Origin: Sphingobacteriaceae bacterium
Lineage (GTDB): Bacteria; Bacteroidota; Bacteroidia; UBA7662
Assembly (NCBI GenBank): GCA_013824115.1
Contig: PNNG01000027.1
Span: 20,425-84,424, forward strand
Direction: 5' to 3'
DNA length: 64,000 nt
Below the pieces are notes generated by a model. It was given only the letters and a program-made list of their open reading frames with translations. It did no database searches and was not told the origin of the DNA. The position numbers were made by a program, and so were the translations under genes. Below, one piece after another: positions 20,371 to 30,855 of this stretch. The first letter of the stretch is position 1. Each line of letters starts with the position of its first letter.

Positions 20371-20583
20371 TTGATTATGAATTTGCAGGAACGAAAAATC
20401 GCACTCATTCATTGGCTCACGGAGGTGGAAGATGAAGAGTTGCTGGAGCAAGTAGAAAGCCTCCAGCAAAATTCATTGTCTTTACCTTCTAAAATTGAGC
20501 AATTATTGGAGATGTCAGCCAAAACACCGGCTGCCGATTGTATTGCTCACACCTCCATCAAGGACCTGCTTCGGAAAGCATGA
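20371..20583 (+). CDS. Putative antitoxin partnering the downstream ParE/RelE-like toxin
   Basis: 70-aa acidic protein. Its stop overlaps the toxin start by 4 nt (ATGA). Confidence 0.5.
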   Translation: MIMNLQERKIALIHWLTEVEDEELLEQVESLQQNSLSLPSKIEQLLEMSAKTPAADCIAHTSIKDLLRKA

Positions 20584-20885
20584 AAAGTTTGATTTGGACG
20601 CCAATTGCGTTAAAGTCACTTCAAGAAACCGTCGATATCCTAGAAAGTCAATGGTATTCGCTCGTGGTTGATGAATTCATTGATAGTATAGAGCAAAAGC
20701 TCATTTTGGTTCAATCAAACGCAGCGTTAGGCCCCAAAATAGGCGCGGGAGAAATCCGCCGGATCCTGTTGCATCCACATATCTCGCTTTTTTACCAAGA
20801 TGAAGCAAGTCACATCAAGATTTTGCTGGTTTGGGATAACAGGCAAAATCCGGATACACTGTTTGAAAAGCTGGTCTCTCAATAA
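20580..20885 (+). CDS. Type II toxin-antitoxin system toxin, RelE/ParE family
   Basis: About 100 aa: MKSLIWTPIALKSLQETVDIL...GEIRRILLHPHISLFYQ...IKILLVWDNRQNP matches the ParE/RelE fold pattern of Bacteroidota TA toxins. Confidence 0.65.
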   Translation: MKSLIWTPIALKSLQETVDILESQWYSLVVDEFIDSIEQKLILVQSNAALGPKIGAGEIRRILLHPHISLFYQDEASHIKILLVWDNRQNPDTLFEKLVSQ

Positions 20886-22439: not shown

Positions 22440-24122
22440 ATGTCAACGCTTTCTACCGCAAAACTGAACATGGCCGAACATCCAACGCCCACCGGAACGC
22501 AACTCAATTGCAAAGGCTGGGTGCAGGAAGCGGCTTTGCGCATGTTGCACAACAACCTCGATCCTGAAGTGGCCGAGCGCCCCGAGGACCTGATTGTGTA
22601 CGGCGGTCGCGGTAAAGCCGCCCGCAACGTAGAAGCATTTGAGTTGATTGTGAAGGCTTTGAAAGATTTGAACGAAGACGAAACCCTGCTCGTGCAAAGC
22701 GGCAAACCGGTGGGCATTTTGCCTACCCACAAAGACGCTCCCCGGGTGGTGATTTCGAACTCTATGTTGGTGCCGAATTGGGCCAATTGGGAGCATTTTG
22801 ATGAGCTCGACAAAAAAGGACTGATGATGTACGGCCAAATGACGGCCGGTAGCTGGATTTACATCGGTTCGCAAGGCATTGTACAGGGTACCTACGAAAC
22901 CTTCAATGCAGTAGCCGACAAACACTTCGGCGGTTCGCTCAAAGGCAAACTTTGCGTGACGGCCGGTTTAGGAGGCATGGGTGGCGCTCAGCCCTTGGCC
23001 ATCACCATGGCCGACGGTGTGTGCTTGGCCGCAGAAGTAGAGGAGTGGCGCGCCCAAAAGCGTGTAGAAACCCGCTACCTCGATTTGATTGAACACGACA
23101 TCGACAAAGCCATTGACCTGGCACTTGATTTTTGCAAAAAAGGCGAGAATAAGAGCATCGGCGTGATTTGCACCGCCGTTGATTTGCTCGATCGCCTCAA
23201 CCAGCGCGGTATTGTACCCGATGTACTCACCGACCAAACCTCAGCCCACGATCCATTGGTGGGTTACATTCCACAAGGCATGACCAACGAGCAGGCCAAC
23301 GTATTGCGTGAAGCCGACCAGGAGGCCTACCTCAAAGCTGCCTATGCTGCCATGCGCCGCCATACCGAATTGATGGTGGAGCTGCAGGCCAAAGGCGCCA
23401 TCACCTTCGATTACGGCAACAACCTCCGCGGCCGCGCCCTCGAAGCCGGTTATACCCACGCTTTCGATTTCCCCGGTTTTGTACCCGCTTATATCCGCCC
23501 ACTTTTCTGCGAAGGCAAAGGTCCGTTCCGCTGGGCAGCCCTTTCAGGCGATCCTGAAGATATTCGGGTAACCGACGAGCTCATGCTCGAGCTTTTCCCC
23601 AACGACAAAGGCCTGCACCGCTGGATCAAAATGGCACAAGAACGCATTGCTTTCCAGGGTTTGCCGGCACGTATTTGCTGGATTGGTCAAGGCGACCGTG
23701 AAAAAGCTGGTTTGGCCTTCAACGAATTGGTACGCACAGGTAAGGTTAAAGCGCCCATTGTAATTGGCCGCGACCACCTCGATACCGGCTCGGTGGCTTC
23801 ACCCAACCGCGAAACCGAAGCCATGCTCGACGGTTCTGACGCCGTTGCCGACTGGCCAGTGCTCAACGCCCTCATCAATACTGCCGGCGGCGCCAGCTGG
23901 GTAAGCTTGCACCACGGCGGTGGGGTTGGCATGGGTTACTCCATCCACTCAGGCATGGTGATCGTAGCCGACGGCACCGACGATGCAGCCCGCCGCCTCA
24001 AGCGTGTGCTCCACAACGACCCCGCCATGGGTGTTATCCGCCACATGGATGCCGGCTATGACATTGCTAAGGATACGGCGCGGAAGCACCGGTTGGATAT
24101 CAGGGAGAGGTTGAAGAGTTGA
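22440..24122 (+). CDS. hutU: Urocanate hydratase
   Basis: 560 aa. The N-terminus and its internal NAD-binding Rossmann region are conserved throughout, as in urocanases. Confidence 0.95.
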
Positions 24123-24129
24123 TTTGAAA

Positions 24130-27100
24130 CTATTCGAACGAATTAGAAGCTGAGAATAAGACCCTTTCTTGTGAGTCTATTCGTTGTATTTCTGACTTTC
24201 TGCTAGAGTATAAGTTTTTCAATTTTGGGAATAACTTGAGATCGTGCTGGTCCAAAATTCTCTTTAGATCTTCAAAAATGGGTTCTCGTTTAACAAGAAT
24301 TTCGAGCTTTGTTTCTTGCCCAAAAGTAGGGACCCTTGTTAATTCATTTACCATGGATTCTAGCATTAATTCTTTATTCAAAGTGCTTTCAATAAGCATT
24401 TTGCCTCTTGCTGTCAAGTGAATAGAATCTGTTTCTATTCTAAACCATTGGATTTCCTCCACAATTTTTGGGAGTCTAATTTCAGTTTTCAGTTGTATCC
24501 AATTAAGTAGCATAATTGGCTTAATTTGATCGCTATTTATGAATTGGGATTTTATTCCAGGTCTAGACCATATCAATTGATTCCAATCCGTATCGAAGTA
24601 CTTAGTTAGTGCAATTTTTGGCCATTTTTTCTCAATAGCCTTTATTGAAAAACTAGTTGCGGAATAAACGCCAATGGCAGTATTTAGTGCTTCACAAAGT
24701 AAATCCAATGCTTTGATTGCCCAATTTTGAAGCATTGTTGAGTCAAGAATTTCAATAAACTGAGATAAATCGTAGTCCTTAATTTCAGTTTGTTCAGTTT
24801 TGGATTCGAACGGAATCCCAAAAAACAATTCAGCGACTGGAATATGAAATTTAGAGGGAAAATAAAAGTCTTGCTGTCTACAATTATATATAGCAAATTC
24901 AAATGTGATGTGTTTGAGCTGTTCGGAGTCGATGATTAAAGTCCAAACCTGATCTTTAAATGGATTTGAAAAATCACTAGAATTGGCAAGAACTCTTTTA
25001 ACGAAATACATAAAGTCCTCCTTTGTGTGTATAAGCTTCTCGATACCATATAGAATTCTATCCCTGTCCTTGAGGAAAAGTACGCGATCAAGCCATATAC
25101 TATGGAAATTTTTCTTCACACTTTCAAAGTCAATTAAATTCTCTGAAAATTCAGTTTCCTTTTCAGGACAAGTTTCGTGTATCCCTCGTATGCAACCATG
25201 AAAAAAGTCGCTGAGCGATAACTCGCTCGTTTTTTCTATTAAAGAAGTCAACTCGCCAATGGCTGAAGCGGACTCTGAAGTTGAAAAAAAGCCTTTTCCT
25301 ATGTAATGGTAGAAATAAGGTGCTTGCTTGCCTGGTTCTGAGAGTTTTGAAGCGAGTTGCGAAATGGTAAATCCTGCTTGGAACCACCTTATACCCAAAT
25401 TCAGTTGATATTGTCCGTTTTCTATGCGTTCAACTGTTTCTTCATCGGTATTGATTTGGAATGCAAAATTGTATGCCTCTTGGAATTTTTGAATGACATA
25501 GACATCGATTTCATCATCTAAAGTTTTAGGCCCATATTCGATTTTAAGGGCAAGCAGTTCTGCTAACTTCGGGTGATTATTCTGTTTTGCCCCATAGAGA
25601 TCTTTAATGGTTCTCAGTACTCCTGCCCATCCCCAAAACCAAAAGCCACTTTTGGCTATTTCACCACCAATCAAAACGAATTTAGAAAAGTAGTTCTCTT
25701 GGTTAAAATTATATTCCAATGCATTAGCCAATGATTTACCTATCTCTTGTTTTGATTCAGGGAAGTTGTTTTGTAATGACTCTATAAACATTAAACAGTG
25801 ATTTATCCAATCATCATACTCTGTTTGATATCGGGGAATAAAGCCATAATCCCTTATTTCATTGCCAAATGGAGCGAGATGATTGCCAGTCACATAACCA
25901 AAATATAAGAGGTTATCGAACAATTTGAAAATCAAATCCTTATTTGACTCATAATCATTTGATAAATCATTAAGGAATTTCAAACGAGTGGATACATGAG
26001 CCTGTGTATTGGAAAGTCTGCTTCGAAACAAGCTTTTTAAGTCCCCTCTTCCTTGTAGCTTTTTTAGATCAAATTTTTCGTGAATTTCGATTTTAAGAAT
26101 GCAATGAGCGCATTCGATGAAGTATTTATCTTCATAGGCAATCTGTACCAATGACTGGTGAAATTGACTCAACAATTTTGTAGTAACTCGTTTTTCACAA
26201 AGCAGTTCCTTGATTTTCATCAAGCTAATGTCCTTATCAAGAGGTATTATGTAGTTTAGTTGTTTTCCAAGCTCATAATCCCAATTTGGAAGAAGTAATT
26301 GCTCGCGATTTTGTTCCCACCAATGGTTGGATAATTCTTGAAAATTCATCTCGGATGACATTTCAAAGCACCTTTTTAGGAGAGAAGTGATTAGTCTATC
26401 TGCATCTAGTTCCTTAAGTTTCTTGTAAATATTTAGCGGACTAATAATCCTGAATGCCTCGAAGCAATAGTGATTTGCCAACGGGACAGGAAGTAATGCA
26501 TGCCAGGTGCCTCTTTGCTGAACAACGTCATGGTCTTTCAATGATTCCAATAATCTTCTGGCATGAAGAGGATTCTCTAAAAACAAATTGCACAATACAT
26601 CAAATTCAGAAGGGTTTTCATCTTGTACATCGAATGAAAATACTACAGAAATGAGTTGCAAGACTTGCTCGCTTTGTTGAAGCTTTGGGTTATTTGAAAG
26701 TAGTTTCAATACAAACTTACGATCGCTGAGCTTACTCCAGCTCTTTGTTTGCTTTCTGATGCCATTCAACAGAAAGTTCGACAATCTAAAGTTTCCATCG
26801 GCTAAAGTTATTATTCTTGAAGATATGCTGCTATGCATGCCAAGTCTACCTTCAATAAATTTATTTATTGCGCCATCTGAAGCTCTTTTTAGCCAAACAA
26901 TGTTTGATACCGAATCTTGTTTTTCAGAGACATCTAAATTTATTGTTACTAACCTTAGTGGTTTTAATTCAGAACTAGTGATTTTAGCCTCTAGTTCCTT
27001 GTGGAGTTCATGACTACAGTTGTCTATTACAACTACACTATTCTTGTTAATAGCAAGTAATTCATCTACAAGATGCTTAGGATGAGGATTCGCAATGCCT

Positions 27101-27921
27101 TCGTCATCGGTATAGAATATATCATTGATTATAATTGATTCATTACCGCTATAATTTTTGAATATTTCTTCAACGAATCTGCTTTTGCCAACCCCTGATT
27201 GCCCTATTACGCGAATTGCTGAAACGACATTTAATTGATTACGAAAGGCTAAAATGGCTTCTTTAGTATTATACTCAAGATTATTATTAAATCCTATAAA
27301 TGCAACCCTTGAATTTTCCAAATCCTCGATAAAATCAATATTCTCGTTGTTCAAGGACCATTGGCCTCTAGGCTTCCATCCATTCGTAGAAATTCCAAGT
27401 TTAGATTTAACCCAGAGCTGAACTTCAGTGTGATAATTCAACCATTTTTGGATATCGTGCAAATCGAAATAATCGCATTGCTCTGAGGGCGCGTTATAAA
27501 ATTCTAGCATGCAATTTTTCAGCGCAATGGATTTGGATTCTTTGGAGCTCCGAGATTTACAAACCAAAACATATTTGCCAGAATTCTGCTGTATTAAAGA
27601 TTCAATTTTTGGATATGTTTTACCTTTTAATAGTACTGCAGATCTAATTTTTCCTTGACTTAAATTAAAAGCCTTTACTTGAAATCCAATTATCTTATCA
27701 CGGAGAAATTGGTTCAAGGGTTCTGTAGAAGAATCTAGATTAAACATTATATCGATTCCACCATCCTTAGCCTTTGTCGATTCCCCGTATTCAGTAGATC
27801 TTGTAGAATGACCATTTTTCCTTGCTTCGGCATCGCAAAGTCGTCCTACCAAATCTTCAAAATCGTCTTCAGATAAAAGTTTTAATTGCTCAATTGAAAC
27901 ATCAAATGACGGTATGCTCAT
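24130..27921 (-). CDS. Large (1263-aa) three-part protein: N-terminal Mrr-like PD-(D/E)xK nuclease, P-loop NTPase, long helical C-terminal region; candidate antiviral STAND/Avs-like defence protein
   Basis: N-terminal FEDLVGRLC...KDGGIDIM...IGFQVKAF resembles the Mrr catalytic core (DGGID...QxK). Walker A VIGQSGVGKS is at 27181-27204. Walker B-like SVVVIDN follows. About 900 aa of low-complexity helical sequence comes after. The gene sits in a ~35% GC island. Confidence 0.55.
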   Translation of the reverse strand: MSIPSFDVSIEQLKLLSEDDFEDLVGRLCDAEARKNGHSTRSTEYGESTKAKDGGIDIMFNLDSSTEPLNQFLRDKIIGFQVKAFNLSQGKIRSAVLLKGKTYPKIESLIQQNSGKYVLVCKSRSSKESKSIALKNCMLEFYNAPSEQCDYFDLHDIQKWLNYHTEVQLWVKSKLGISTNGWKPRGQWSLNNENIDFIEDLENSRVAFIGFNNNLEYNTKEAILAFRNQLNVVSAIRVIGQSGVGKSRFVEEIFKNYSGNESIIINDIFYTDDEGIANPHPKHLVDELLAINKNSVVVIDNCSHELHKELEAKITSSELKPLRLVTINLDVSEKQDSVSNIVWLKRASDGAINKFIEGRLGMHSSISSRIITLADGNFRLSNFLLNGIRKQTKSWSKLSDRKFVLKLLSNNPKLQQSEQVLQLISVVFSFDVQDENPSEFDVLCNLFLENPLHARRLLESLKDHDVVQQRGTWHALLPVPLANHYCFEAFRIISPLNIYKKLKELDADRLITSLLKRCFEMSSEMNFQELSNHWWEQNREQLLLPNWDYELGKQLNYIIPLDKDISLMKIKELLCEKRVTTKLLSQFHQSLVQIAYEDKYFIECAHCILKIEIHEKFDLKKLQGRGDLKSLFRSRLSNTQAHVSTRLKFLNDLSNDYESNKDLIFKLFDNLLYFGYVTGNHLAPFGNEIRDYGFIPRYQTEYDDWINHCLMFIESLQNNFPESKQEIGKSLANALEYNFNQENYFSKFVLIGGEIAKSGFWFWGWAGVLRTIKDLYGAKQNNHPKLAELLALKIEYGPKTLDDEIDVYVIQKFQEAYNFAFQINTDEETVERIENGQYQLNLGIRWFQAGFTISQLASKLSEPGKQAPYFYHYIGKGFFSTSESASAIGELTSLIEKTSELSLSDFFHGCIRGIHETCPEKETEFSENLIDFESVKKNFHSIWLDRVLFLKDRDRILYGIEKLIHTKEDFMYFVKRVLANSSDFSNPFKDQVWTLIIDSEQLKHITFEFAIYNCRQQDFYFPSKFHIPVAELFFGIPFESKTEQTEIKDYDLSQFIEILDSTMLQNWAIKALDLLCEALNTAIGVYSATSFSIKAIEKKWPKIALTKYFDTDWNQLIWSRPGIKSQFINSDQIKPIMLLNWIQLKTEIRLPKIVEEIQWFRIETDSIHLTARGKMLIESTLNKELMLESMVNELTRVPTFGQETKLEILVKREPIFEDLKRILDQHDLKLFPKLKNLYSSRKSEIQRIDSQERVLFSASNSFE

Positions 27922-28011
27922 TGTGGATCTAGAATTGGATATTCAAGAATAACATCTAAAAATAACCAATAATTAGGAAAAGAAAAAAAATAACTTCAGA
28001 TGCATATGGCT

Positions 28012-29568
28012 TCACTCCACCACCAACTTCTGCGTCTCCACCTTACCGCCAGCATTCAGTTGTACGAGGTAAGTGCCCGAAGCCAACTGGCTGCTATTGA
28101 AAGGCACCAAATGCTGGCCGGGTTCGAATTTACCGGCACGCAGTTCAGCCACCTCGCGGCCGCGTAAATCAACCACCGAAAGACGGATGTCGGCCGTTTG
28201 GTTGAGCTGGAAACCGATGTTCAGCTCGCCACGGGCTGGGTTGGGATAAATGGGATACAATTTGGTTTGCAGCTTCAAAATGCCGGTTCTGTCCTCGGTG
28301 CTTAAGGCGATGTTTTCATCTCCAGCCTGGTAGGGCACATAACCAAAGTAGCAGAGGTACATTTCATCGGTGGTGCCTTCGCCCCAGGTAATTTGCTGAG
28401 GTGGGTTATTCGGGTTGTTCGGATTGCTGGCCCGGTTGTCGTAGGTGGCCTCGGCATATATCCACGTATTGGCGGGCAGGCGAATGAGGCGGGGGAAATA
28501 GTAAAATCCCTGCCAGTTGAAATCCCACTGCGGAATATTGATGAGGTTCACCGTATCGTTGCCCGGCCGCACGGCATATACTTTCCAATCGGTACCAATG
28601 AGGTGGCTGTGCGGAAAAATGCTGAGCAGCGATACCTCACTGGGTACCCTAAAACGGCCGCGGAAAGTGCGTACTTGATTGGCAGGAATCACAAAGGGAC
28701 CGTTCATCAAATTCAAAGGCGAAATCTCGGTAATTTGCTCCAACCTGGTCACTTGATTATTGCGGTCGTAGAAAATGTTGATGCTGCTCGAGTCGAGTTC
28801 AGGCAGCGACGAAGGAGCGTAGTGCATCTGCACCAGCACGTCGGCACCTGCAGGGAGCTGTTTGCCAATATTCGACGGAAAATACTTGGCAGCCGCACCT
28901 GGCGCCCAGCCGTACCAATTGTCTTCAGTAGGCGTAAAACCAAAGCCAAAAAACTGGGTGTAGCCGTAACCGGGGTCCAAACTATCGCGCTGGCGACCTT
29001 GACCGGTGAGGTCTATGCCCAAAATGGCATGGTGAACTACTTTTTTATTGCCGGCCCTGAATTCAATGGCCTTGATTTTTTTGGTTTCATTGAGGTTTGT
29101 GGGCAATACAAACACCCGGTACATATCGGTATTGTTGCCTTGGTGCAGGTACGATTGGGCCATCGAAATCACCGTATCGGGTTGCCCCAACTGCGAGCCG
29201 CTGGGGTAATTGGGCAGGGGAGGTTCGGCAGCAGGATTGCCCCGTTGGGCGCCTTGTTGCACCCAATCGACAATGGTTTGTACTTCTTGCTGGCTTAACA
29301 CACGCTCACCCAACAAATGGCTGTAGTTGGGGTCGGGCTGCCAAGGCGGCATATAGCGCGTTTGCACCGTAAACGAAATCATGCTCGCATAGGCCGATGC
29401 CTCCTGGTAATTGGTGAAGGGCATGGGGCCAATTTCACCAGGTCGGTGGCAGGGCGTACAATGCTGGTAAACGATGCTGGCTACTTGTCCGGCCCAAGTT
29501 ACCTGAGCTTGTATCTGGGTGAACAGGCCACTAAAAAGCAGTGCACCACAAAGCAGTAATTTCTTCAT
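28012..29568 (-). CDS. Secreted fusion protein: N-terminal mono-haem cytochrome c (CXXCH), PHM/DBH-like copper monooxygenase core, T9SS C-terminal sorting domain
   Basis: Signal peptide; HCTPCH haem motif. Cu-site-like motifs VVHHAILG, HYAP, HSHLIG and TDEMYLCYFGY (compare PHM HHM / HxH / DEMCN). C-terminal ...YPNP...GTYLVQL...KLVVE sorting domain. Confidence 0.55.
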   Translation of the reverse strand: MKKLLLCGALLFSGLFTQIQAQVTWAGQVASIVYQHCTPCHRPGEIGPMPFTNYQEASAYASMISFTVQTRYMPPWQPDPNYSHLLGERVLSQQEVQTIVDWVQQGAQRGNPAAEPPLPNYPSGSQLGQPDTVISMAQSYLHQGNNTDMYRVFVLPTNLNETKKIKAIEFRAGNKKVVHHAILGIDLTGQGRQRDSLDPGYGYTQFFGFGFTPTEDNWYGWAPGAAAKYFPSNIGKQLPAGADVLVQMHYAPSSLPELDSSSINIFYDRNNQVTRLEQITEISPLNLMNGPFVIPANQVRTFRGRFRVPSEVSLLSIFPHSHLIGTDWKVYAVRPGNDTVNLINIPQWDFNWQGFYYFPRLIRLPANTWIYAEATYDNRASNPNNPNNPPQQITWGEGTTDEMYLCYFGYVPYQAGDENIALSTEDRTGILKLQTKLYPIYPNPARGELNIGFQLNQTADIRLSVVDLRGREVAELRAGKFEPGQHLVPFNSSQLASGTYLVQLNAGGKVETQKLVVE

Positions 29569-30178: not shown

Positions 30179-30855
30179 TCAGTCGGCTTTCAGCCAAATT
30201 TCGGGATGTTCCCAAGGGCTTTCTATGGCCATTTGAATGGCTTCGGCTACTGCTTTAGGTTCAAGCACTCCAGGGCGTGGGCCTTGCGGTTGTTTGTTGT
30301 TGAAATAGGTATTCACCAATCCCGGATACAGGTTACAAACCGATATGTTGCTGCCTTCCAATTCTGCCTGCAAACTGCCAAACATGCCATCTTGCGCAAA
30401 TTTGGTAGCGCAATAGGCTGTTCCTCCTGCAAAGGTGCGGCGTCCGGCTTTACAAAAACGCCGGCGTTTTGGGCCTTGAAATGGGGGAGGACGGATTGGG
30501 TGAGTGCAAAGCCGGCAAAAACATTCAGCTGAAATAGCTCCATCATTTCCTTGACCGAAATGTTTTCCATTGGCCCAAATTTGCCCATGCCTGCGTTGTT
30601 CACCAGCACATCTATGCGTTCGAAATGGGCCACAATCTGTTTAATGACGGAGGAAAGATTTTCGGATTGGGTCAGGTCGACTTCTAGAATGAGGTACTGG
30701 CCTTGGGCTAATCCAGCATCTTTCACCAACTGCTGCATCTCACTGCCATTTCGGGCCAGCAAGGCCAATCGATAGCCCTTGGCACCCAACAAACGTACTG
30801 TGGCTGCACCAATGCCTCGGGAAGCACCACTAACAACAACTACTTCCGGTCTCAT
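30179..30855 (-). pseudogene. Short-chain dehydrogenase/reductase (SDR) gene disrupted by a frameshift
   Basis: The N-terminal ORF has GASRGIG and NNAG. The catalytic ...AGRRTFAGGTAYCATKFAQDGMFGSLQAE (YxxxK) is readable only in a different frame across ~30395-30410. The C-terminus resumes in the 30179-30385 ORF. Confidence 0.5.

Follow-up and report, generated by a model that had tools for sequence, protein, structure and literature searches.

On the minus strand of the window (the whole stretch of 64,000 nucleotides analysed here, from a Sphingobacteriaceae metagenome-assembled genome, MAG), positions 24130..27921 hold a complete gene of 1263 codons plus stop, whose product very probably belongs, as a divergent and stand-alone member, to the antiviral STAND NTPases of the Avs8 (PD-λ-4A) family. 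The protein joins an N-terminal PD-(D/E)xK nuclease domain, a STAND NTPase module and a long helical C-terminal region, and it is an unusually divergent member of a described family, not a new kind of system. The gene was defined from the list of open reading frames (ORFs), in which ATG is the start codon, and from its translation; its family was identified with PADLOC, and an exact-sequence look-up equated the product with GenBank MBA4304230.1, a "hypothetical protein" encoded on a 96-kb contig of a Sphingobacteriaceae MAG. A preliminary description of this DNA had already proposed an antiviral Avs-type protein at this place, a proposal that family membership supports, and the ORF and every motif that it quoted lie where it had put them: FEDLVGRLC at aa 21-29, KDGGIDIM at aa 52-59, IGFQVKAF at aa 78-85, the P-loop GQSGVGKS at aa 240-247 (nt 27181-27204) and VVVIDN at aa 296-301 (nt 27019-27036). 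The length that it quoted as typical of such proteins, an ORF of 1.2-2 kb, should be 1.2-2 thousand residues.

Assignment to the Avs8 family

The assignment is carried by the PADLOC profiles. The PD-Lambda-4_A model PDLC03991 matches the window protein with an E-value of 2.1e-98 and 328.5 bits (aa 6-930 on profile positions 4-942 of 1283), a second PD-Lambda-4_A model, PDLC03990, matches it at E 2.6e-29, and no other PADLOC model reaches E<=1, hence none for Avs1-5. Given these matches, the earlier impression that the protein had no exact described family match and could be an undescribed variant has to be given up. Pfam and NCBIfam scans returned only sub-threshold P-loop matches, and neither a nuclease family nor a TPR family was found by them in the window protein. 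The family was discovered as PD-λ-4 through functional selection in Escherichia coli (Vassallo et al. 2022, PMC9519451) and now bears the name Avs8, being counted among the antiviral STAND NTPases (bioRxiv 10.1101/2025.07.02.662641; 10.64898/2026.01.04.697583).

Our reference was the Avs8 locus of E. coli strain EC71 (L009), whose A protein scores 2524 bits on PADLOC PD-Lambda-4_A and whose gene downstream of A carries WP_000443183.1, the accession listed in the Avs8 literature for Avs8B of strain ECOR07. BLASTP aligns the window protein with this E. coli Avs8A at 26% identity over residues 6-810 (E 9e-73). The Avs8A of ECOR07 (WP_000963924.1) has the same three-part architecture in 1283 residues, against 1263 in the window protein; its Walker A motif reads GKT where the window protein has GKS, position 241 is L instead of Q, and it comes from Enterobacteriaceae, whereas the window protein comes from a MAG of Sphingobacteriaceae (Bacteroidota) and stands without Avs8B.

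Relatives are numerous and widely spread. An exhaustive phmmer search with residues 1-1200, run against 1.84 billion cluster representatives, gave 1298 relatives at E<=1e-3, and at E<=1e-30 there are at least 591 clusters (50% identity). Nearly all of them are 1240-1290 residues long, similar to the window protein. The nearest is a syntenic orthologue (P0001, 73% identity), followed at 29% identity over the full length by P0004, which lies on a Bacteroidota-like contig and is also a lone gene amid housekeeping genes. In a scan of one genome per species, at least 479 genomes carried a relative, in phyla that include Acidobacteriota, Bacillota, Pseudomonadota, Bacteroidota, Planctomycetota and Chloroflexota among others. 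Other comparisons did not reveal the family: a word-indexed homologue search missed it, returning only 3 matches when queried with the protein alone and 9 when queried with a profile of 66 sequences, megablast of the locus against E. coli genomes and tblastn against phage genomes gave no match, and sequence and profile searches of the PDB gave nothing significant (best match, the NB-ARC P-loop region of Roq1, E 0.11). We found no study of Avs8 in Bacteroidota in a check of the literature that was not exhaustive.

Alignments of 66, 96 and 142 family members were used to follow individual residues, and the window protein retains every invariant column of those with 66 and 142 members. In the nuclease these are D53, G54, D57, Q81 and K83, together with Y117, W160, W170, W182 and W188 elsewhere in the N-terminal domain; around Walker A they are R237, G240, S242, G243, G245, K246 and R248, and around Walker B D300, N301 and C302, plus H307 and D330. 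The helical and winged-helix domains keep G376, N377, Q468, R470, A475, L477, P478, S513 and R517, and the sensor keeps T639, G693, P798 and W1141 as well as the last two residues, F1262 and E1263.

Nuclease and STAND NTPase modules

The first ~200 residues (27322..27921, minus strand, as are all parts of the gene given below) form a PD-(D/E)xK nuclease effector domain with a motif of Mrr type. The first half of the active-site motif is D53-G-G-I-D57 (27751..27765), in which D53 and D57 are invariant in the alignments of 66 and 96 members, and the (D/E/Q)xK half is Q81-V-K83 (27673..27681), in which Q81 and K83 are invariant across the family alignments. An AlphaFold2 model of aa 1-560, for which 96 aligned sequences were supplied, reached a predicted local distance difference test score (pLDDT) of 89.2 and a predicted template modelling score (pTM) of 0.88; in it D57 starts a strand at 58-61 and Q81-V-K83 lies on a beta strand at 77-83, which are the canonical places of the PD and (D/E)xK elements in the PD-(D/E)xK fold. 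The N-terminal domain of the model resembles FokI-type PD-(D/E)xK nucleases.

The preliminary description had called this domain an Mrr-like nuclease. The fold, the D-GG-ID...QxK motif of Mrr type and the four invariant residues D53, D57, Q81 and K83 agree with that description, yet the specific label "Mrr" could not be confirmed for the domain: neither Pfam Mrr_cat nor Pfam Mrr_N is matched in the window protein or in any of 39 family members (E<=0.1), and hhalign, which sets the D53-G-G-I-D57 stretch on the GDGGIDG motif of E. coli Mrr, aligned the domain with a shallow E. coli Mrr alignment over just 30 columns around DGGID (P 0.008, probability 4.8%). The Avs8 literature itself describes the N-terminus of the family as Mrr-family (bioRxiv 10.1101/2025.07.02.662641; 10.64898/2026.01.04.697583).

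The nuclease is followed by the nucleotide-binding domain of a STAND NTPase (aa ~205-345, 26887..27309), recognised by Foldseek and by matches to AAA_16 in family members. Its Walker A motif is G240-Q-S-G-V-G-K246-S (27181..27204), with G240, G243, G245 and K246 invariant, and its Walker B motif is V-V-V-I-D300-N301 (27019..27036), after which comes an invariant cysteine; D300, N301 and C302 are invariant or nearly so in the family, the D-N-C of Walker B (aa 300-302, window 27016-27024) being present throughout. The helical and winged-helix domains that complete the module (aa ~346-530, 26332..26886) were placed from the model, which has helices at 349-463, a beta hairpin at 467-476 and further helices at 479-520, and from their invariant residues. 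Pfam AAA_16 matches 33 of 39 family members, with weak matches to nSTAND3, NB-ARC and NACHT in two to three members each, and Pfam assigns neither NB-ARC nor NACHT to the window protein at a significant level.

Structure prediction followed by Foldseek was one of the checks that the preliminary description had proposed. In the PDB, the best match of the aa 1-560 model is EcAvs4 bound to a phage portal protein (8dgf, E 2e-8), with an alignment of 549-613 columns that spans nuclease and NTPase together at 12% identity. After EcAvs4 come CED-4, NOD2, the STAND-TPR protein 6mfv, Apaf-1, EfAvs5 and NAIP5 (E up to 1e-6), and with these matches the suspected STAND-type P-loop NTPase is borne out. The fold of the module of nucleotide-binding, helical and winged-helix domains is common to the window protein and to CED-4, Apaf-1, NOD2, NAIP5 and plant NB-ARC proteins (Foldseek E 6e-8 to 1e-6); identity to these eukaryotic NLR and apoptosome ATPases is ~10-13%, and their effector and sensor domains differ from those of the window protein. 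As for bNACHT proteins, their NACHT domain (PF05729) is not matched in the window protein, and 2 of 39 family members match it at E 0.025.

These results also bear on a different view of the gene, namely that it encodes a nucleotide-dependent type IV restriction enzyme, an Mrr-like nuclease coupled to a P-loop NTPase (compare McrBC) that senses modified DNA. We regard this as very improbable. The D-GG-ID...QxK motif is indeed the Mrr-type variant of PD-(D/E)xK, and EcoKMrr (Mrr_cat PF04471) has both this type of catalytic motif and the fold in common with the window protein. However, EcoKMrr is a free-standing restriction enzyme, whereas the domain found here is the effector module of a STAND protein that has no Mrr_N or other DNA-recognition domain and no Pfam Mrr_cat match; the NTPase resembles those of STAND proteins, carries helical and winged-helix domains and is structurally closest to an Avs protein, not to McrB; and what triggers the characterised family member is a protein, purified capsid protein activating its DNA cleavage. 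Judged by its sequence, the window protein is neither a free-standing Mrr restriction enzyme nor a bNACHT protein.

The C-terminal sensor

From aa ~531 to aa 1263 (24133..26331) extends an all-helical sensor region, delimited by segment hidden Markov models (HMMs) and by anchor residues. The segment HMMs were built from 140 other members and searched against the window protein, which they match at aa 6-195 (E 1e-47), aa 211-538 (E 1e-70), aa 583-826 (E 1e-49) and, in register though with only 40 bits, aa 852-1225 (E 8e-15). From these four matches the entire protein appears collinear with the family, with a far more diverged distal sensor. The proximal sensor, to about aa 830, is well conserved, while the distal part aligns only weakly with the family, and the PADLOC match goes no further than profile position 942 of 1283. 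Conserved anchors nevertheless run through the region, at G843, G909, R955, P1101, W1141, F1262 and E1263.

A long, helical, TPR-like C-terminus of low complexity had been anticipated in the preliminary description. Its helical nature stands, as far as the secondary structure of the models goes, since the C-terminal ~900 residues are helix-rich in them; the remainder does not, for Pfam found no TPR or other repeat family in the C-terminal region, and the amino-acid composition of these residues is ordinary for an AT-rich gene. We also observed that Phe-Glu at the extreme C-terminus (aa 1262-1263, window 24133-24138) occurs in 96% of 142 members and is invariant in the alignment of 66, which hints at a role for the C-terminal tail.

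A one-gene insertion with mosaic alleles

The gene makes up nearly the whole of a ~3.9-kb inserted segment (24116..28013), as defined by comparison with relatives in which the site is empty: homology to one of them (L090) ends at window 24115 and restarts at 28014. The gene is set between the stop codon of hutU (urocanase), which ends at 24122, and that of a convergent gene for a protein sorted by the type IX secretion system (T9SS), which starts at 28012. In four related assemblies hutU and the T9SS gene lie 2-3 nt apart (empty sites at L090 8680-8683, L092 7680-7683, L093 7680-7684 and L094 2968-2972, the last assembly being represented by L094/L095), and the gene, found in two related lineages and missing from four, has accessory status. 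The segment holds no mobility genes and is flanked by no direct or inverted repeats above chance. Its base composition sets it apart, as had been remarked before: GC is 0.34-0.36 in the four 1-kb bins over 24001-28000 as against 0.47-0.57 in the adjoining bins, and the low-GC stretch is exactly the ORF plus 90 nt upstream. This AT-rich upstream region (27922..28011), read from the sequence inside the inserted segment, is presumably the promoter and 5' untranslated region of the Avs8A-like gene; it is not conserved in the syntenic allele of L001, where ~300 nt stand instead, and a promoter and terminator scan around the insert found nothing above chance.

The site is occupied in one other lineage (L001/L002), in which the left junction is the same as that of the window, including the altered last codons of hutU. 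By its flanking genes the closest relative of the window is the empty-site L094 (nucleotide identity 94.3% in hutU, 97.2% in Por and 93.5% in guaA), and the occupied L001 is more distant (93.2%, 83.8% and 87.4%, respectively). With an empty site in the closest relative and, in a more distant one, a filled site that shares the left junction, two histories come into question: transfer of the cassette from lineage to lineage through homologous recombination, or its loss in some lineages.

The two alleles, window 24130-27921 and L001 8001-11792, are equally long and can be aligned with no indel at all, yet they fall into four blocks of different identity. In aa 1-527, nucleotide identity is 47-72% and synonymous divergence (dS) is saturated over aa 1-200 and 2.15 over aa 201-530; in aa 533-856 there is one mismatch in 970 nt (25355..26324, dS 0.011); in aa 861-1194, the distal sensor, identity is 70-90% (dS 0.72); and in aa 1195-1263 it is 96-99% (dS 0.10). 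The flanking genes give dS values of 0.37 (hutU) and 0.88 (T9SS-substrate gene) between the window and L001. The near-identical block of 970 nt, flanked by diverged ones, appears from sequence comparison to mark recombination mosaicism, and the first and main breakpoint, at about window 26330 (aa ~530), falls where the winged-helix domain of the NTPase module gives way to the sensor; further breakpoints lie at about window 25350 and 24340. All of these sequences are metagenome assemblies, and chimeric assembly is a possible source of the mosaic, although P0001, the product of the syntenic allele, is present on five contigs. Relative to the L001 allele, the ratio of nonsynonymous to synonymous divergence (dN/dS) lies between 0.12 and 0.25 wherever it could be computed, namely in four of five gene blocks (dS is saturated over aa 1-200). 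Purifying selection thus acts on both alleles, a point against a pseudogene.

The setting of the gene raises the question of whether it is a decaying or non-defence relic, that is, a nonfunctional acquired gene or a STAND protein in a regulatory or housekeeping role. It stands alone amid housekeeping genes, the 64-kb window has no other PADLOC defence system, and the gene is known solely from metagenome assemblies. On the other hand, a frame of 1263 codons is intact in DNA of 35% GC, for which our own arithmetic gives a chance of ~1e-41 (stops making up ~7% of random codons at this GC); every family-invariant catalytic residue is kept; dN/dS is low and indels are absent against a diverged allele; and presence/absence polymorphism combined with allele mosaicism is typical of accessory defence genes. 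We consider a relic scarcely credible, and rejected the pseudogene in particular on the retained invariant residues and the dN/dS values. What could not be upheld is the defence-island setting that had been proposed at first, as this is a lone inserted gene whose neighbours are housekeeping genes, with no second PADLOC system beside it. The reference Avs8 locus of E. coli EC71 differs in this respect, adjoining genes for an integrase, a recombinase and an IS3 transposase. Two canonical, plasmid-borne homologues of Avs8A were also seen, one in Enterobacter mori (L007) beside genes for an HNH endonuclease, a Fic protein and a RES-domain protein, the other in Bacillus cereus (L008) beside genes for an AAA ATPase, an ATP-dependent helicase and a DUF262 protein; we read these annotated neighbours as defence-type, unlike the housekeeping setting of the window gene.

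Absence of the Avs8B partner

There is no Avs8B gene (PD-Lambda-4_B) beside the window gene, and an insert that consists of the ORF and 90 nt has no room for a second one. With E. coli Avs8B as query, tblastn found no match in the window and, among 89 loci, matches solely in 4 enterobacterial ones; in 67 loci with a complete A gene there is, enterobacterial group apart, no conserved neighbour upstream or downstream. A stand-alone A gene is what most members of the family have, as in the window. According to the literature, Avs8A alone gives full defence and Avs8B is dispensable (bioRxiv 10.1101/2025.07.02.662641; 10.64898/2026.01.04.697583); lacking B, the window locus therefore departs from the two-gene definition of the system, but the functional inference is not weakened by this, and we rejected the idea of a required Avs8B partner on these two grounds, its enterobacterial confinement and its dispensability.

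A separate observation concerns Avs8B itself. In E. coli EC71 (L009 10898-11810) and in Shigella flexneri (L060) its frame is split into ORFs of 248 and 59 aa, which jointly cover the 303-position PADLOC PD-Lambda-4_B profile, WP_000443183.1 being the 248-aa piece. The "B gene" may thus be frameshifted, which would fit its reported dispensability.

Proposed mechanism and trigger

The mechanism that we propose is drawn by homology with E. coli Avs8A and with Avs3/Avs4. E. coli Avs8A binds λ gpE and the major capsid protein (MCP) of Bas21 with nM affinity, degrades double-stranded DNA if MCP is present, with purified capsid protein turning on the cleavage, loses defence when its nuclease active site is mutated, and recognises MCPs of low sequence identity via their common HK97-fold; Avs3/4, in turn, become active when they bind a conserved phage protein directly and form tetramers (10.1101/2025.07.02.662641; 10.64898/2026.01.04.697583). 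In a model from a Gao-lab preprint, Avs8 wraps around the MCP at its A-domain. Avs4 and Avs1-3 have the same logic of N-terminal nuclease, STAND NTPase and helical sensor as the window protein, with sensors that are unrelated to it in sequence and that respond to the portal protein in Avs4 and to terminase in Avs1-3.

By this homology, the window protein would rest as an autoinhibited monomer until its helical C-terminal sensor closes around a monomer of some structural protein that the phage produces in the course of infection, the likeliest target being the HK97-fold MCP of a Sphingobacteriaceae-infecting phage. Binding would free the STAND NTPase, and ATP at K246 would lead to oligomerisation, probably into a tetramer, that gathers the N-terminal PD-(D/E)xK nuclease domains (D53/D57/Q81/K83). 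Once assembled, the nucleases would cut phage and host double-stranded DNA indiscriminately, and the infection would be aborted. Defence activity, ligand-induced DNA degradation and oligomerisation of the window protein are all features that we infer from the E. coli experiments.

Several findings weigh against placing the protein with Avs8, or against extending to it what is known from E. coli, and they are best considered together. Identity to the characterised E. coli Avs8A is only 26%, no pairwise BLASTP alignment to it continues past residue 810, and the window protein ranks most or second most divergent among 142 members in each of the four segments. The distal sensor is matched weakly even by its own segment HMM, and a model of aa 1-1200, built on a 4-sequence alignment, has a pLDDT of 47.5 and is usable for secondary structure alone. 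In the nuclease, the lack of a Pfam Mrr_cat match and the slight hhalign similarity to Mrr belong here as well. STAND and AAA+ proteins usually hold a second acidic residue where the Avs8 family has Asn301, and because this residue is Asn family-wide, so that D300-N301 stands in Walker B of the entire family, ATP hydrolysis may be weak or unnecessary. Finally, the window is a MAG contig, which counts as regards expression and integrity in a living strain.

The extreme divergence among the 142 members also means that the trigger may differ, and trigger identity is the point on which we claim the least certainty. For an MCP as the trigger of the window protein, we judge the odds to be slightly favourable. 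A possible, though on balance unlikely, alternative keeps the same family and effector logic and has the distal sensor recognise another phage protein, such as a portal, a terminase, a tail protein or a capsid fold peculiar to Bacteroidota phages. This alternative gains from the distal 430 residues being the least conserved part of the family, with 40 bits against the family HMM here; from the BLASTP alignment to E. coli Avs8A and the PADLOC profile match both ending before the distal region; from the C-terminal segment of the window protein, which diverges more than that of any other of the 142 members; from the separate history of the distal sensor block in the syntenic allele (dS 0.72, 64-80% amino-acid identity); and from the literature, in which similarly built Avs families sense many different phage proteins. 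Yet the C-terminus appears to stay collinear with the family, with anchors at G843, G909, R955, P1101 and W1141, the terminal F-E and a nearly unchanged length, and E. coli Avs8A recognises MCPs of low identity through their common fold. Slightly more doubtful still is an elaboration by which a deeply divergent Bacteroidota subclade, comprising the window protein, P0001 and P0004, has remodelled its distal sensor for a phage protein other than an HK97 capsid protein and swaps modules in situ between alleles at one site; under that elaboration the modules swapped may be the effector with the NTPase, the proximal sensor, the distal sensor and the tail. An MCP of HK97 fold, then, is the trigger towards which we lean for this Avs8A-like protein.

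Other features of the window

Two further observations lie outside the Avs8A-like gene. Between the carboxyltransferase and corA genes there is a spot (window 20371-20885, plus strand; L001 14591-15099; L090 4399-4851) that contains a ParE-type toxin gene at 20538-20882 (Pfam ParE_toxin, E 9e-6) with a small upstream ORF; in three relatives an IS200-type Y1 transposase takes its place, which makes this the second small variable spot of the neighbourhood. At window 30179-30855 (minus strand), a short-chain dehydrogenase ORF has 180 aa as against 229-234 aa in the relatives L001, L090 and L092, and a 68-aa ORF in another frame overlaps its 3' end. This is an apparent frameshift, and so either a pseudogene or an error of MAG assembly.

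Significance

Our analysis suggests a function for a protein that GenBank lists as a "hypothetical protein" (MBA4304230.1), namely that of an Avs8A-like antiviral STAND NTPase. An important consequence concerns the range of the capsid-sensing Avs8 family, which has been characterised solely in E. coli and which reaches Sphingobacteriaceae and many other phyla, at ~25% identity, as a single-gene system. In addition, the locus offers a clear-cut case, found in nature, of a defence "islet" made of one gene, with precise insertion boundaries, empty sites in related genomes and mosaic alleles. As such, it could serve as a model for the exchange of effector and sensor modules among STAND immune receptors.

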